Part shown: piece after piece, positions 23,817-51,770 of the stretch | How the letters are laid out: every line of letters starts with the position of its first letter | Position numbering within the stretch: the first letter of the stretch is position 1 | Source: an uncultured Ectothiorhodospiraceae bacterium | GTDB lineage: Bacteria > Pseudomonadota > Gammaproteobacteria > UBA9214 | DNA: 64,000 nucleotides | Direction: 5' to 3' | NCBI GenBank assembly: GCA_947258845.1 | Contig: CAMYJZ010000002.1 | Coordinates: 5,678 to 69,677 of the forward strand | The notes under the pieces: generated by a model | Told to the model about the DNA's origin: nothing | What the model saw: the letters and a program-made list of their open reading frames with translations, nothing else | Database searches by the model: none | Made by a program: the position numbers and the translations under genes

Positions 23817-26800
23817 ATGAGTAAAAACAGCGAAACACCTCAGGAATCCAAACGGGACAATCCGAATTCCGGCGACGGACCGGGTGGCGGAAACGCCGTT
23901 ACCGGGCCTGTACAGGGGGCAACGGGATTTGTCCCGAAAGTGGCCGAGTTGAACGAGGAGATCAACCGGCTGTTTGGAAAAATGCATGGTCTGGATGAGG
24001 CACTGCGTGAAAGTGATGATCGCGCCCGGCAGATTGAGGAGAAGAGCCATACGATCGCCGAGCTGCAAGACCAGATTGAAGAAAAGAGCGGTGAAATCGA
24101 TCGCCTGCAAATTGACATTGACGGGCTGCACGACTCCCTGAGCAAGCAGGAACAGCGGTTCGAGGACCAGCTGCATGGCAAGCAGTCGGAGATCGGTGAA
24201 CTGGAGGGCAGGGTATCGGAGCGTGGCCAGGAGGTCAGCCGGCTGTATGGACATGTCGAGGAAAAGGGCCTGGTCATCAACCAGCTGACCGAACAGCTCG
24301 GTCAGCGTGATGAAGAGCTTGTCAGCCTGCAAGGCGATGTAGAGGGCAGGGAACAGACGATTGCCCGGCTCGAGGGTGAACTCGGGGAACTGGATGCCAG
24401 CTTTAGGGAAGGCAAGGAACGCAGCGATGCGCTACTTGAGGAGAGGCAGGAGCAGATCGCCCGACTGGAGTGGAAGGTCAAGGAGAAATACAAGGAGATC
24501 ACCCAACTGCATGGCAAGATCCATGACCTCGGTGACGAGTTGCGTGGCAGCGAGGAACGTGCCGAACAGCTTTCCCAGGAAAAGACCCAGGTCACTGTTG
24601 AACTGGAGGGGCGAATTGCAGGGAAAGAACGCGAAATTTCAGAATTAAATGAACGTGCTGGTGAAATGGCGCAGGAAATCGCCAATCTGACCGGACAGGT
24701 GAATGAACAGGCGCAGATCATCACCGGCCTGGAGGAGCAGGCCGCGGAACTGCAAAACAGCTTGCGATTTGCCGAGGAGCAGGCCGAACAGCGGCTGGAA
24801 GAGAAGCAGCGGGAAATTGCCGGCTTGCATGGACAGGTCGAGGACCTGAATGCGGCTATGCATGCCAGCGAAGAGCAGGCCGCCCGGCAGATTGCAGAGA
24901 AGGGTGATGAGATCACGCGCCTGGTTGCGGATCTTGAAGAGAAAGACCAGGCACTGGTTCAGTCGCAGGCAAGTGCCAGAGAGAAAGACGAGGCCATCGA
25001 CGGGCTGGAAGAGAGCATTCAGCAGTTGAACATGAGCATGCGCACTGTAGAAGAGCGGGCCGCGCAGGAACTCGAGAGCAAGCAGAAGGAAGTCACTGAG
25101 CTGGAATGGAGCGTCAAGGATAAAAACGCTGAAATCAGTGAATTGCACGGGAATATCCGTGATCTGAGTGCCGAGCTGAGTAACTCTCAGGAGCAGGCCG
25201 AGCGCCAGCTGGATACGAAATCACGGGAGATCGAGCAGTTCGAGACCCAGGTCCGGATGCTGGAGCAGGACAAGCGTGAGAGTGCCGAGCGTACCGGGCA
25301 GGAATTGCAGGAAAAGGCAAAATATATCAGTCAACTTGAAGCCAGGCTGGAGCATCTGAATACGGCCCTGCATGAAAACAAGGAAAGTGCGACACAACAG
25401 ATAGCAGAACAGACCCGGGTCGCTGAGACCCAATCACAGCTAGTTGCCCAGCTTGAGCAGCAGCTGGAGCAGCAGCAGGCTGCCATGAATACCAACGTCG
25501 AGAACAGTGCCCGGGAACTACAGGCCAAGATGCAAGAGGTCACTCAGTTGTCCAAGGCGCTGGAACAGAAGGCTGATGAGGTCACTGAGCTGCATGGCAA
25601 GGTCCGCGAGGTTGGTGCAGAACTGGATGCCCGTGAGGCGCATGCCGCCGAGCAGGTGCAGGAACATGAACAGGTGGTTCGCCAGCTCAAGGAAAGAATC
25701 GGGGAACAGATGACGACCTTGCAGGATGTTGCTGAGCAGGCCAGAAAGCAGCAGAAGGGGAAGATGCAGACAATCGGCGAACTCGAGAAGCAGCTCAGGC
25801 AGCAGTCGGCGGCCATGGCGGATGTGGTCGAGGAGGCCCGGCAGCAGCAGGAACAGCAGAGGCAGACGATCGGCGAGCTCGAGGAGCAGCTCAGGCAGCA
25901 GTCGGAAAGCGGCAGTGGCCAGGCCAGCAAGTATGCGGAAGAGCTCGAGGCAAGCCAGGAAACCATCAAGCGGCTCACTGCGGATATCGATGAAAAAGAT
26001 AAGGAAATCAGTAATCTGAATAACAAGTTCGAGGAGGTGAATACCCGCCTGGGTGAGAGCAACGCGCGTATCGCCTGGCAAAACAAGGAGAATTCCAGGG
26101 CCATCAACCAGCTGAAGGCCCAGCTCAAGCAGGAATCCGTCGGCATGCGCGAACACACAAGCCAGGCCGCGCAGCAGCTGCAAGAAAAGGACGAGGAGAT
26201 TGCAGAAAAGGCGCAGCTCATCAGCCGCATGGAGGAACAGGTCCGGGAGATGCAGGCCTCAGGGAAGGCGGCACAGGAAAGGGCCGAGCAGCTGAGTGCG
26301 GAAAATGCCCGCCTGTCCAAGACGGTGAAGGCATCTGAACAACAGGACCGGCCGGCAGCCACTAGCGGTGGCAATGAAACGGTATCGGGGAACAAGGAAC
26401 AGGAAGTCGTCAAGTTGCAGAATACGGAGATTGCCCGGCTGCAGGAACACGTCCAGAAACTTAAGGTCAAACTCAATGAGAATGCCGAGCGACAGCTGCA
26501 GAAAAAGCAGGAGCAGAGTTCGCAGCCGGTGACCAACGCAATCAAGACCGTGATGGAAGACAAGCTGAAGAAGCTGAGTACCCTGGACACGCTGACCGGG
26601 ATGGTGAACCGTCAGCACTTCATGAAGGTGCTGGACGCATCGGTCAAGACTGAAGACGCGGCAGGTCAGTCGGTGCTTTACATCCTGCTGCATAACTTCA
26701 GGGATATTCGCGAGAAGATCGGTGTGTCTGACAGTGATGTGGTCCTGCGCAATGTTGCAAGCATCATCCAGGCCGATCTTGGTAAGCAGGATGTGGCATC

Positions 26801-27878
26801 TCGCTTCGGCTACTACGTATTCACCGTCCTGCATCAGGGGAGTGATGCGATGACGGCTAACCAGCTTGCCGAACAAATTCTCCACAAGCTGGAGAATCAT
26901 GTTTTCAATGCAGGGGAGCACACTGTCAGGGTGAGTCCGAGTATCGGTATCAGCGAGGTCAGCAATAGCGTACATAGCGCCGAGGGCCTGATCCAGCGTG
27001 CCGATCTTGCCTGCGAGGTGGCCCGTTCATCCAGTGGAACCAGGGTCTACACTCACAATTCAGCGGTAGAGGAACAGCTTGCTCCGGAGCATGAAACGGA
27101 GTCGCACCTGATGGTGAGGAAGACGCTGCAGGATGAGCGGTTCTACCTGGTTTACCAGCCAATAGTCAGTCTTGCAGAAGACAAGCAGCAGCGCTACGAG
27201 GTGTTGTTGCGGATCCTTGATGAAGATGGCGAGGTTGTTCTACCCAGCCAGTTCCTGAAAGTGGCGGAATCGATGGGCCTGAGTGGTGAGGTGGATATCT
27301 GGGTGATCGAGAATGCCTTCAAAAAGCTCGCGGAACTGCAGCGCGAGGACAAGGATGCCACCTTCTATATCAAGGTCTCGGGCAAGACCATCGCCGACAG
27401 GGAGCTTGCCCTGTGGATTGACGCGAAGATGAACGATTACCAGCTGCAGCGCGAGAACGTGGTCATCGAGATTGCAGAAGAATCCGTGCTCAATGATATG
27501 GAAAACAGTATGGCATTTGTGACATCCATGCATAACCTGGGTTGCAAGGTGGCACTGGAACATTATGGTGCATCAAGTCCTCCCCAGGTTCTCAAACGTC
27601 TTCCCGTCGATGTCCTCAAGGTGAATGGCGGCCTGATTGCGGGTATGGCGGGCAGCGAGGAGAACCAGGTCACTGTGAAGACCATCATCACGCTGGCGCG
27701 AGATCTCGGTATGGAATGCGTCGCTGAACAGGTCGAGGACACTGTCGTGCTGGCACTGCTGTGGCAGTACGGTGTCCAGTTTGTCCAGGGGAACTTCGTC
27801 CAGATACCGAGCAGGAATCTCGATTACAATTTCGAGGCCAGCGTCACCGGCAACGAGTCCAGCGTTTTCTCCGCGTAA
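23817..27878 (+). CDS. Giant coiled-coil protein with C-terminal degenerate GGDEF and degenerate EAL (EVL-type) domains; putative c-di-GMP receptor or scaffold
   Basis: 1353 aa. About 900 aa with heptad-like E/Q/K/L-rich repeats and recurring ~90-aa modules carrying ELHGK/GLHGQ/ELHGN motifs. GGDEF-like region with RFGYYVF in place of RYGGEEF. EAL region with EVLLR, but DDFGTG replaced by EHYGAS and KIDRSF by KVNGGL. No TM or signal peptide. Confidence 0.8.
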   Translation: MSKNSETPQESKRDNPNSGDGPGGGNAVTGPVQGATGFVPKVAELNEEINRLFGKMHGLDEALRESDDRARQIEEKSHTIAELQDQIEEKSGEIDRLQIDIDGLHDSLSKQEQRFEDQLHGKQSEIGELEGRVSERGQEVSRLYGHVEEKGLVINQLTEQLGQRDEELVSLQGDVEGREQTIARLEGELGELDASFREGKERSDALLEERQEQIARLEWKVKEKYKEITQLHGKIHDLGDELRGSEERAEQLSQEKTQVTVELEGRIAGKEREISELNERAGEMAQEIANLTGQVNEQAQIITGLEEQAAELQNSLRFAEEQAEQRLEEKQREIAGLHGQVEDLNAAMHASEEQAARQIAEKGDEITRLVADLEEKDQALVQSQASAREKDEAIDGLEESIQQLNMSMRTVEERAAQELESKQKEVTELEWSVKDKNAEISELHGNIRDLSAELSNSQEQAERQLDTKSREIEQFETQVRMLEQDKRESAERTGQELQEKAKYISQLEARLEHLNTALHENKESATQQIAEQTRVAETQSQLVAQLEQQLEQQQAAMNTNVENSARELQAKMQEVTQLSKALEQKADEVTELHGKVREVGAELDAREAHAAEQVQEHEQVVRQLKERIGEQMTTLQDVAEQARKQQKGKMQTIGELEKQLRQQSAAMADVVEEARQQQEQQRQTIGELEEQLRQQSESGSGQASKYAEELEASQETIKRLTADIDEKDKEISNLNNKFEEVNTRLGESNARIAWQNKENSRAINQLKAQLKQESVGMREHTSQAAQQLQEKDEEIAEKAQLISRMEEQVREMQASGKAAQERAEQLSAENARLSKTVKASEQQDRPAATSGGNETVSGNKEQEVVKLQNTEIARLQEHVQKLKVKLNENAERQLQKKQEQSSQPVTNAIKTVMEDKLKKLSTLDTLTGMVNRQHFMKVLDASVKTEDAAGQSVLYILLHNFRDIREKIGVSDSDVVLRNVASIIQADLGKQDVASRFGYYVFTVLHQGSDAMTANQLAEQILHKLENHVFNAGEHTVRVSPSIGISEVSNSVHSAEGLIQRADLACEVARSSSGTRVYTHNSAVEEQLAPEHETESHLMVRKTLQDERFYLVYQPIVSLAEDKQQRYEVLLRILDEDGEVVLPSQFLKVAESMGLSGEVDIWVIENAFKKLAELQREDKDATFYIKVSGKTIADRELALWIDAKMNDYQLQRENVVIEIAEESVLNDMENSMAFVTSMHNLGCKVALEHYGASSPPQVLKRLPVDVLKVNGGLIAGMAGSEENQVTVKTIITLARDLGMECVAEQVEDTVVLALLWQYGVQFVQGNFVQIPSRNLDYNFEASVTGNESSVFSA
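25767..25905 (+). repeat. Intragenic tandem duplication (43-bp near-identical units CAGAC[A/G]ATCGGCGA[A/G]CTCGAG[A/G]AGCAGCTCAGGCAGCAGTCGG, 96 bp apart) encoding QTIGELE[K/E]QLRQQS twice
   Basis: Read directly from the sequence. Confidence 0.7.
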
Positions 27879-49848: not shown

Positions 49849-49986
49849 GGCGGGGATTTCTTCCGGCGGTCAGTATACCAGCATGCCGCGGTTCCACGGC
49901 CTGCACGAGCAGTGTGCGGTGCTTGCCGGCGGCAATAAAAAACGGGGCCGCGAGGCCCCGTTCCGGGTAGAGCGAACTACGCAGGC

Positions 49987-50382
49987 TTAGGCGACCTGGT
50001 CTGAGGTGTTCTTTTCCTGGTAGTTTTCGATGGCCGCCTTGATGGCATCCTCGGCCAGTACCGAGCAATGGACCTTGACCGGCGGCAGCGCGAGTTCCTC
50101 GGCGATATCGGTGTTCTTGATTTCCCGGGCCTCGTCGAGAGTCTTGCCTTTTACCCACTCGGTCAGCAGGGAACTGGAGGCGATTGCCGAACCACAGCCA
50201 TAGGTCTTGAAGCGGGCATCTTCGATAACGCCACTGGTGTTGACCTTGATTTGCAGTTTCATGACGTCCCCACAAGCCGGCGCGCCAACCATGCCGGTAC
50301 CCACCCCCTTGTCTTCCTTGTCAAAAGAGCCCACGTTGCGGGGATTCTCGTAGTGATCTAGCACTTTTTCACTGTACGCCAT
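49987..50382 (-). CDS. iscU: Fe-S cluster assembly scaffold IscU
   Basis: ORF 49987..50406; MAYSEKVLDHYENPRNVGSF... at 50382 is >80% identical by eye to E. coli IscU, including all three cluster Cys, D39 and LPPVK. Confidence 0.9.
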   Translation of the reverse strand: MAYSEKVLDHYENPRNVGSFDKEDKGVGTGMVGAPACGDVMKLQIKVNTSGVIEDARFKTYGCGSAIASSSLLTEWVKGKTLDEAREIKNTDIAEELALPPVKVHCSVLAEDAIKAAIENYQEKNTSDQVA

Positions 50383-50441
50383 ATCGATATCTCCAGATGA
50401 ATCCAAATAACGATTAAGTTTCGGGAAAAGATAAAAGGATG

Positions 50442-50885
50442 TCAGGCCGCAGACTTCTGGTAGCTGTTTCCGAACAGGGATTCCTGCGTGTCTTCCAGCT
50501 GCGGTTCAACGGCCTCGGCCAGGGTGATCCCGTCGAGGTAGTCGTAGACCTGGTTGCTCAGGCGCTGCCACATCATCAGGCTGCCGGGTATTTCGGTATC
50601 TGCTGATGTCATATCCTGGCGCATCACCATGTCGTCAACCGCATTCAGGATATTGGCGATAGTGATCCCGCTCGCTGAACGTGCCAGGCAATAGCCGCCA
50701 CCCGGACCGCGCATGCCCGTGACCAGGCCATTCTGGCGCAGGCGTGCAAACAGCTGCTCAAGATAGGAGATGGAGATAGACTGCTGGGCAGAAATATCCG
50801 CAAGGGTGACGGGGCCCTTCTCCTGGCGCAGGGCCAGTTCCATCATGGCCGTTACAGCATGGCGCCCCTTTGTTGATAATTTCAT
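50442..50885 (-). CDS. Rrf2-family regulator, IscR-like, but lacking the Fe-S ligand cysteines
   Basis: 147 aa. N-terminal 90 aa closely match IscR (MKLSTKGRHAVTAMMELAL...GPGGGYCLAR). The C92/C98/C104/H107 ligand region is absent, with only one Cys in the protein. Located directly upstream of iscU. Confidence 0.85.
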   Translation of the reverse strand: MKLSTKGRHAVTAMMELALRQEKGPVTLADISAQQSISISYLEQLFARLRQNGLVTGMRGPGGGYCLARSASGITIANILNAVDDMVMRQDMTSADTEIPGSLMMWQRLSNQVYDYLDGITLAEAVEPQLEDTQESLFGNSYQKSAA

Positions 50886-51014
50886 GACAAACCTCTGATG
50901 AATACGGTACTGACTGTGTCGATGCCGGTGCCTCTGGACCGTATCCTGTGCAGGGCGCCGGGACCCGAACCAAGTAGTGGTCCGCGGAAGACTTGGTACT
51001 AATGATAGTAATAG

Positions 51015-51031
51015 TTGACTCTTTTGGTCAA
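51015..51031. promoter_or_regulatory. Palindrome TTGAC-N7-GTCAA in an AT-rich region ~130 bp upstream of the Rrf2 gene and divergent from rsd; candidate Rrf2/IscR operator
   Basis: Read directly (TTGACTCTTTTGGTCAA). Resembles the GAC...GTC core of IscR sites. Confidence 0.35.
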
Positions 51032-51314
51032 GATTTATCCCCCTGTCGATGCGGGGTAACCGGGTTGGGATACACTATAAAGTATATATTAAACAGTAAG
51101 ATACCATGGCTACTATCCTCAAGGGGGTATGTCAGGTGACGGGGTTGGCTGGCTCGGGGTGCCGCTATCGGGAGCCATTGCCGCTGAATCGACCGCTATC
51201 CAAAAGAGTTTTATTAACATTGGCTTATCTTTGTCCTGACCGGGCAGGGCAAGTCAACCCCGGGCCCCGTGATTTGTTACAATCTTCCGAATAACAACAT
51301 GGCAGGAGCGCATT

Positions 51315-51770
51315 ATGGGATCACAAAATCAGGTGGATGTTGATCGCCGTAGCAAGGCGAGCGAGAAACTTGCATCCCTTGTTCAATCGAGAACCGAGAC
51401 ACTGTCACTATTGACGGATCTTGCGGGCCGTCAGCCTTTCGACTCGGAGCCGGATACGGAACAGGCCCTGCGCCGGTTTTGCGAGGCCCTGATTGATTAC
51501 ACCGCCAGCGCCCATTTCCAGTTGTATCGCTACCTGTCGGATAACCGGGAACGCCGCCAGTCGGTACTGGCGGTTGCCGACAGGATCTATCCCATGATTG
51601 TCGAAAGCACTGACGTGATCCTGCGTTTCAATGACAAGTACGAGTCCATGTCACTCGATAACAGCGTGGAGTTCCTGGCCATGGATTTGTCCAACCTGGG
51701 TGAATGCCTCGCCGAACGTATCCAGCTCGAGGACCAGGTCATCAAGGCCATGGGTGGTGCGATTCACTAG
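51315..51770 (+). CDS. rsd: Rsd/AlgQ-family anti-sigma-70 regulator
   Basis: 151 aa. The Rsd/AlgQ pattern (FCEALIDYTASAHFQLY, LEDQVIKAM) aligns with E. coli Rsd. Confidence 0.8.
   Translation: MGSQNQVDVDRRSKASEKLASLVQSRTETLSLLTDLAGRQPFDSEPDTEQALRRFCEALIDYTASAHFQLYRYLSDNRERRQSVLAVADRIYPMIVESTDVILRFNDKYESMSLDNSVEFLAMDLSNLGECLAERIQLEDQVIKAMGGAIH

Follow-up and report, generated by a model that had tools for sequence, protein, structure and literature searches.

Iron-sulfur (Fe-S) cluster assembly in bacteria has IscR as its textbook regulator, which measures the Fe-S supply by carrying a cluster itself. In a 64,000-nucleotide stretch of contig CAMYJZ010000002.1 from an uncultured Ectothiorhodospiraceae bacterium (hereafter the window, to which all positions refer), an IscR-like gene without the ligands for such a cluster is followed directly by iscU, the gene of the assembly scaffold, and the usual partners of the iron-sulfur cluster (ISC) machinery are missing around the pair. 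The locus raises the question of what such a regulator does in front of a scaffold gene, and of where the other parts of the machinery belong. The answer that we favor, at a probability of roughly 60%, is that a housekeeping iscU has been split from the isc operon and now forms a stand-alone, autoregulated unit under a dedicated ligand-less paralogue of IscR. Both genes lie on the minus strand:

50442..50885, minus strand: Cys-less IscR-like Rrf2 regulator of 147 aa (Pfam Rrf2, E=4.4e-30)
49987..50382, minus strand: IscU scaffold of 131 aa (NifU_N, E=6.8e-56), with its true start at ATG 50382 and its stop at 49987

An earlier note on this DNA had described the first gene as encoding an IscR-like protein devoid of the three cysteines and the histidine that hold the sensor cluster, and this description was borne out by two alignments. 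When aligned with the E. coli IscR structures (4HF0/4HF1), the protein places neither Cys nor His at any of the four positions Cys92, Cys98, Cys104 and His107, and the same absence was found against canonical Cys3His IscR proteins (C-x5-C-x5-C-LTH), relative to which the former cluster region is 4 residues shorter. The residues reading the DNA (S40, E43, Q44 and R59) are retained, being invariant in the alignment with the canonical proteins, and the overall identity to E. coli IscR of ~49% rises in the DNA-binding half. The sole cysteine of the regulator, C66, is located in the wing. Its domain layout comprises a winged helix-turn-helix, a variable former cluster loop, a dimerisation helix and a tail ending in ...QKSAA. 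AlphaFold2 predicts residues 1-83 (the winged helix) and the dimerisation helix confidently, while the predicted local distance difference test (pLDDT) falls below 50 at 88-93 and 130-147, so that the C-terminal tail is predicted to be disordered.

The comparison with IscR, NsrR and CymR identified IscR as the closest relative. The best NCBIfam model was IscR TIGR02010 at 149.4 bits, short of its equivalog cut-off of 207.55; the IscR equivalog NF008110 gave 131.7 bits against a cut-off of 275, the next-best named match was CymR NF047409 with 100.6 bits (cut-off 195), and the NsrR model reached 27.8 bits. Because the protein failed both the ligand test and the equivalog-score test, we would not class it as IscR; it is an IscR paralogue rather than a standard Cys-containing IscR. 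No record of the window's own Rrf2 protein was found when one was looked up.

The loss of the ligands is a trait of a whole family. More than 120 homologue clusters were recovered at ≥71% identity, nearly all of 147 aa and all Cys-less in the sensor region. Among 119 family members, residues 1-85 are mostly ≥98% conserved and residues 86-105 are the most variable; none has a Cys within positions 84-112, and the former loop holds no conserved His or Cys. C66 is present in 101/119 members and replaced by Ser, Phe or Tyr in the other 18, with 13 members containing no Cys at all, while the last residue, A147, is found in 119/119 and is preceded by A in 107 and by V in 12. In a search of 1.84 billion representative proteins the family formed a discrete cluster, with the best match at 176 bits and the scores then falling to ~133. 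Of the 116 near representatives, 20 possess the Cys triad, and an -AA ending occurs in 0/20 with the triad versus 21/96 without it. Ligand-less IscR-like proteins thus form a large and diverse group. A neighbor-joining tree calculated without support values placed the Cys-less forms outside the canonical cluster in a star-like radiation, and because of this unsupported shape no single origin is claimed for them. Another ligand-less subgroup bears the C-terminal motif ...(A)PNSVFA(L/F)G... (for example P0158, P0169, P0187, P0198, P0211 and P0241).

Cys-less IscR homologues already have precedent. The IscR of the Rhodobacteraceae, which also lacks the canonical Cys triad, regulates Fe-S genes, heads an isc-suf operon and needs a single C-terminal Cys for its cluster (PMC4618611). 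The lone Cys of the window regulator, in contrast, is in the wing and is dispensable in the family, which makes cluster binding unlikely. The regulator therefore seems to be IscR-like at the DNA level and to be neither of the Rhodobacter single-Cys type nor a CymR.

The second gene had been claimed as a fully canonical iscU, and the evidence upheld this. IscU scores 228.3 bits against TIGR01999 (cut-off 192.4), is ~84% identical to E. coli IscU in a residue-level alignment with 2L4X and 3LVL, and retains C37, D39, C63, H105 and C106 together with LPPVK, the HscA-binding motif. By score and residues it counts as a regular IscU, and it is probably the sole scaffold rather than a duplicate.

How widely the arrangement is conserved was examined by a genome scan with one genome per GTDB species, which yielded 47 related loci (L001-L047), all from metagenome-assembled genomes (MAGs) of uncultured Gammaproteobacteria, mostly from sediment. 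Across these loci, identity is 59-93% for the regulator and 83-97% for IscU, and in all 47 a gene for Rsd is divergent from regulator-iscU. The operon layout is conserved in 47 or more species-level genomes. The regulator and iscU make up a self-contained two-gene operon with promoter, operator, leader, two genes and terminator; iscU begins 59 nt past the stop codon of the regulator gene and has its own Shine-Dalgarno sequence, GGAGA. Its end is marked by one predicted element:

49934..49964, minus strand: intrinsic terminator GGAACGGGGCC-TCGC-GGCCCCGTT followed by TTTTTATT, from a predicted fold

A hairpin with a T-run, mostly an identical GGGGCC hairpin, follows iscU in 37/45 loci. As in E. 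coli and Pseudomonas, the regulator is an Rrf2 winged helix-turn-helix protein, encoded by the first gene of an iscU-holding operon behind a promoter-overlapping Type-1-like operator. It differs from those IscR proteins by the lack of Cys92/Cys98/Cys104/His107, the scores below cut-off, the long structured leader and the Ala-Ala end; and, unlike iscRSUA-hscBA-fdx, the operon has no iscS between regulator and iscU and terminates after iscU.

The statement that ISC partners are absent nearby held as far as it was probed: tblastn with E. coli IscS, SufS, HscB, IscA, Fdx, CyaY, NfuA and ErpA gave no match in the 64-kb window or in the 47 loci (+/-10 kb), with HscA, SufB and SufD not being probed. 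With SufC, the only matches were of ~25% identity in related loci, and these we take to be generic ABC ATPases. As to the probes themselves, those for IscS and SufS agree almost completely with PDB 1P3W and 1I29, and the IscS, SufS, HscB, IscA, Fdx and ErpA probes matched targets in L053, a locus of a second subfamily that served as positive control.

This second Cys-less, AA-tailed subfamily, ~45-50% identical to the window protein, has iscU directly after the regulator gene in L051, L052, L053 and L056. In L053 the Cys-less IscR/iscU pair is convergent to an isc operon of canonical IscR (VTRCAGKGNCQDDGKCLTHELW), iscS, iscA, hscB, hscA, fdx and iscX. The gap between its iscS (75% identical to E. 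coli) and its iscA measures just 35 nt, leaving no iscU in this operon. The Cys-less genes of L053 and L052 are preceded by the Type-1-like sites TTGACTAATTCACTAAG and ATAGTTGATTAAAACACTAGG (L053 9800-10000, L052 9930-9960), and the canonical iscR promoter of L053 has a Type-1-like site as well. A second line of evidence comes from L150, a 1.4-kb metagenome contig of the same family as the window, in which the regulator is 74% identical and the operator, the leader and the ...QKSAA tail are the same. There iscA (75% identical to E. coli IscA) starts 14 nt after iscU with no terminator between them, so that the operon, which in the window holds only iscU behind the regulator, runs on into iscA. 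The arrangements in L053 and L150 connect the orphan IscU with the housekeeping ISC apparatus. They suggest a loss of iscS from its place between the regulator gene and iscU, followed, in the clade of the window, by a truncation of the operon behind iscU. Dispersal of ISC-related genes is seen in this part of the tree: Alkalilimnicola ehrlichii, a cultured species of the family Ectothiorhodospiraceae, has a stand-alone canonical Cys3His iscR (L057 8001-8474, NFZV01000013.1), whose surroundings contain neither isc nor suf genes within 8 kb. These results support the proposal that the ISC layout has been rewired and that the desulfurase gene lies elsewhere. Neither an iscR-iscU operon nor an iscU-less isc operon was found reported in the literature, of which the coverage was partial.

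The control region upstream of the regulator gene contains the following elements:

51002..51031, minus strand: sigma-70-type promoter, TTGACC, an 18-nt spacer and TATCAT (10/12 consensus matches)
51011..51035, minus strand: operator AATCTTGACCAAAAGAGTCAACTAT, IscR Type-1-like, which overlaps the -35 hexamer and spacer and contains the palindrome TTGAC-N7-GTCAA (51015-51031)

Both promoter hexamers are conserved over the related loci, and transcription would start near 50995. The palindrome, which had been put forward as a plausible operator, proved to be real: it occurs once in the window, where 0 are expected by chance, and the operator is kept in all 47 related loci inside a near-invariant block of 25-31 nt. 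In sequence it resembles the Type-1 consensus ATASYYGACTRWWWYAGTCRRSTAT quoted in PMC6599224, matching 21/25 positions in the window and 22/25 in the family consensus. A position-weight-matrix scan of the operator over 760 kb returned cognate sites only and no second site. It is also similar to site B of P. aeruginosa iscR (TTGAC-N5/6-ACTCGG), which sits between -35 and -10 (PMC6599224).

Between the promoter and the regulator gene, a leader RNA is conserved:

50886..50995, minus strand: structured 5' leader RNA of ~110 nt, supported by covariation and conservation
about 50983-50965, minus strand: P1, a variable hairpin of the leader model
50961-50925, minus strand: P2, a two-part hairpin with the apical loop motif GGATACGG
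50946-50939 with 50907-50900, minus strand: H-type pseudoknot, in which GGATACGG pairs with CCGTATTC
50895-50892, minus strand: Shine-Dalgarno sequence GAGG of the regulator gene, 4 nt past the end of the pseudoknot in the window

The two 8-nt blocks GGATACGG and CCGTATTC are near-invariant, while the flanking arms vary by lineage yet stay complementary. RNAalifold selects the 8-bp long-range helix; because the register of P2 differs between lineages, MAFFT followed by RNAalifold gave only this pseudoknot helix. A covariance model (CM R1) was built from six sequences and found exactly one copy per locus, always before this regulator gene. In the resulting alignment 91.7% of cells are paired, versus 27-38% in controls with slid partners, each of the 11 P2 pairs has changed on both sides, and the covariation score is 0.322 compared with 0.116 in shuffles, none of which (0/500) reach it. 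Having been fitted to the model, this alignment is biased toward the structure; the slid controls speak for a genuine signal. Arm swapping, as an independent test, gave -14.2 kcal/mol for cognate and -8.5 for non-cognate arms. The pseudoknot helix is 97.8% paired and nearly invariant, with double changes at 2/8 pairs (A-U, G-U and G-C at one position, G-C to A-U at another). The minimum-free-energy z-score of the whole leader is unremarkable (-0.57), for which reason the evidence for the leader is covariation and not stability.

Like the rpsO/S15 leader, SAM-II and preQ1-II, the leader contains a hairpin loop that pairs with a downstream strand near the ribosome-binding site; it also shares with H-type pseudoknot elements a covarying stem 1 and a strong conservation of the loop and of its partner. 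It differs from these regulators by the lack of a match in Rfam 15 (none at E≤10) and by ending 4-7 nt before the Shine-Dalgarno sequence. Neither the loci of the second subfamily nor the iscR of A. ehrlichii gave a match to the covariance model, and the leaders of that subfamily are unlike that of the window, the L053 leader being ~180 nt long with its own long-range inverted repeat TTAGAATCAT...ATGATTCTAA. A metagenome scan with GGATACGG-N15-45-ACCGTATTCA returned at least 120 matches, among which 115 are chance occurrences without covariance-model support and 5 lie in the known context (one being L150). An element resembling the iron-responsive element was considered and rejected, the linker CAGUA not being in a hairpin loop. 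Within a partial coverage of the literature, no report was found of an iscR leader RNA of this kind.

A further conserved feature is the end of the regulator itself. FNR, an Fe-S-linked regulator, is degraded in its apo form by ClpXP, partly via a C-terminal Val-Ala. Like FNR and ssrA-tagged proteins, the window regulator has a disordered C-terminus that ends in Ala-Ala, or in Val-Ala in 12/119 members; a free end of this kind on an unstructured tail (pLDDT <50, 130-147) is what a candidate degron would look like. An unbiased screen of C-terminal pentapeptides in E. coli found Ala at the last two positions to be the dominant enriched feature, with the strongest tags being ssrA-like and ClpXP-dependent and -LVA tags also working (PMC10862746). 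Unlike the ssrA tag (L-A-A), the window regulator has K-S/T before its terminus, and the likeness is one of sequence.

The circuit that we infer from these features would work as follows. The Cys-less dimer would bind the operator over the -35 hexamer and spacer and repress its own operon, giving a homeostatic control of IscU, whose partners IscS, HscBA and Fdx would be encoded elsewhere in the genome. Because the cluster sensor is gone from the regulator, other layers of control are proposed: the pseudoknot leader beside the ribosome-binding site may gate translation, and the disordered Ala-Ala/Val-Ala tail may make the repressor a substrate for turnover of the ClpXP type. In E. coli, E43 disfavors binding of apo-IscR to Type-1 sites, and therefore a canonical holo-IscR from elsewhere may also read the operator, passing on the Fe-S status. 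CymR, which works with CysK, has an activity that depends on a protein partner and offers a precedent for sensing via a partner such as IscU. The CymR proteins of Bacillus and Staphylococcus (PDB 2Y75, 3T8R) are likewise Rrf2 regulators without a metal cluster. No cysteine-metabolism gene is present among the annotated part of the window genes, no search for cysK or cysE having been made.

A bolder extension, which we offer tentatively and would not wager on, is that the leader represents a new class of cis-regulatory RNA, acting either as a riboswitch or as an operator to which IscU or the regulator would bind, that reports iron or Fe-S status to the scaffold operon; together with protease-controlled turnover of the ligand-less paralogue, it would replace cluster-on-repressor sensing in widespread sediment Gammaproteobacteria. 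A Cys-less paralogue controlling a stand-alone iscU was not found in the partially covered literature, and the same is true of an AA-tail signature.

Several points weigh against the interpretation of a split housekeeping operon under its own repressor. Within the sequence read for the window's clade, which comprised the 64-kb window and the 47 loci of +/-10 kb, iscS, hscBA and fdx were not seen; L053, which does encode them, belongs to a different subfamily (~45-50% identical), and L150 is only a 1.4-kb metagenome contig. Cys-less, AA-tailed relatives exist without an adjacent iscU in L050, L054 and L055. On the side of the mechanism, E43 is retained, so binding of the regulator to this operator is presumptive; the pseudoknot helix is so nearly invariant that few compensatory changes (2/8 pairs) stand behind it, and it stops 4-7 nt before the Shine-Dalgarno sequence without covering it; and the candidate degron is a resemblance only.

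As to the surroundings of those three relatives, L055 (10001-11104) has tandem Cys-less Rrf2 genes of 144 and 142 aa (P0309 and P0320) with no iscU nearby. Behind the AA-tailed Rrf2 gene of L054 come a 70-aa ORF and a Peptidase_M48 gene, and in L050 the Rrf2 gene is followed by that of an 816-aa protein with cNMP-binding and rhodanese domains.

The alternative that survives best, though we regard it as unlikely, retains the operator and changes its reader: a canonical cluster-bearing IscR encoded elsewhere would be the main protein at the site, and the Cys-less paralogue would tune the response as a competitor, an anti-repressor or a heterodimer partner. It draws on L053, where both paralogues are encoded and both promoters have Type-1-like sites, on the identity of S40, E43, Q44 and R59 in both paralogues, and on the poor binding of E. 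coli apo-IscR to Type-1 sites (PMC6599224). In the sequence read for the window's clade, no canonical IscR was seen. A weak test, in which the IscR of A. ehrlichii was the query, gave no match on the known contigs of the clade, and a regulator encoded as the first gene behind a promoter-overlapping operator is the classic layout of autoregulation; these points speak against this alternative.

The explanation given in the earlier note itself is that of a constitutive apo-IscR in front of a minimal or accessory IscU, fed by SUF or NIF, in a genome without ISC desulfurase, chaperones and ferredoxin. None of the probed ISC and SUF genes was found in the 64 kb or in the 47 loci of +/-10 kb, and the dispersal of ISC genes in relatives, including the solitary canonical iscR of A. 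ehrlichii, would be compatible with it. We nevertheless consider it improbable, given that an IscU ~84% identical to that of E. coli keeps the HscA-binding LPPVK, that the iscS, iscA, hscBA, fdx and iscX of L053, lacking iscU, adjoin a homologous pair, and that L150 joins an iscU of the same family to iscA; in the light of L053 and L150, a minimal ISC system, sulfur from SUF or NIF and an accessory scaffold are each less likely than a split housekeeping ISC. The label of a constitutive apo-IscR does not fare better as it was worded. The operator is Type-1-like (21-22/25), of the class that apo-IscR binds poorly and not of the Type-2 class that it favors (PMC6599224), and the leader RNA and the Ala-Ala/Val-Ala tail are two extra, strongly conserved regulatory features, which argue for regulated rather than constitutive expression. 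The scenario that had been named as fatal to the original idea, in which the pair is a paralogous duplicate with a standard IscR, came true in part: the regulator is a paralogue of IscR, but it is not Cys-containing, and IscU is probably the only scaffold.

That the regulator still senses Fe-S directly through unconventional ligands is much less probable again. The R. sphaeroides IscR, which binds its cluster through one Cys without the Cys triad (PMC4618611), shows that such a mode exists, and C66 is kept in 101/119 members; this residue, however, is in the DNA-binding wing and not in the C-terminal part, is lost in 18/119 and leaves 13 members Cys-free, and the former loop is the least conserved region, with no conserved His or Cys and low model confidence. 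Finally, the loss of the sensor residues and the variable central loop might be taken for the decay of a functionless relic in front of a constitutive iscU, which is excluded for practical purposes by the >120 homologue clusters of the same length with residues 1-85 ≥98% conserved at most positions and an invariant terminal Ala, and by an operator, leader and terminator conserved in 47 species.

The operon is flanked by two further genes, and a second palindrome lies upstream of it:

49848-49012, minus strand: RibD_C protein gene, next after iscU (Pfam)
51315-51770, plus strand: Rsd/AlgQ gene, upstream and divergent (Pfam)
51113..51130, minus strand: second palindrome ATACCCCCTTGAGGATAG (TATCC-N6-GGATA), ~90 nt upstream of -35, between the operon and Rsd/AlgQ

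The gene after the pair, noted earlier as RibD-C-like and unrelated, was confirmed as RibD_C and is placed outside the operon, because the terminator closes the operon after iscU and at least 8 loci have a GGDEF/EAL gene on the opposite strand that separates iscU from RibD_C. The inserted gene, encoding a response-regulator/GGDEF/EAL protein of ~680 aa, was observed in L009, L021, L027, L031-L034, L041 and L178-L181. The second palindrome shows ≥90% column conservation in 48 sequences and has a single match in the window; as a Type-2 IscR site it was rejected, its left half being similar (ATA-CCCYT) and its spacing wrong. Elsewhere in the window, a search against Rfam at gathering thresholds revealed only two tRNAs. 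A 1353-aa protein (23817-27878, plus strand) has GGDEF and EAL domains confined to its C-terminal third, with no Pfam match at E≤1e-5 in the N-terminal ~900 aa, and the DNA at 24001-26000 within its gene has odd skews (AT skew 0.35, GC skew 0.20).

Some of the related loci have peculiar labels. L023, L035 and L042 are titled 'Halobacteria archaeon' and yet contain a gammaproteobacterial locus with full synteny, so that the labels or the binning are probably wrong. Three MAGs contain two copies of the locus on separate contigs, namely ES_Gamma_053 (L001/L003, 93% and 92% identical to the window protein), CSMAG_1699 (L008/L032, 77% and 67%) and ChS5.bin.15 (L022/L025, 69% and 69%), which looks like strain or lineage mixing in the bins and not true paralogy.

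The locus implies that a large and abundant uncultured group keeps the DNA-binding module of IscR and a Type-1-like operator and drops the sensor. The broad ligand-less 'IscR' family to which the regulator is related carries automatic annotation as Fe-S assembly regulators. Three outputs lend themselves to direct testing: the RNA motif, which is supported by covariation and has no counterpart in Rfam, the defined operator and the candidate degron. The scaffold gene is separated from the desulfurase and chaperone genes, and if the proposed model is right, the expression of the scaffold and that of the sulfur donor would be controlled separately, which would be sensible where other sulfur pathways draw on IscS as well. 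The control of Fe-S homeostasis in these bacteria would then fall to an RNA element and protein turnover, not to a repressor-borne cluster, and the arrangement would represent a rewired form of the textbook homeostasis circuit rather than a minimal one.

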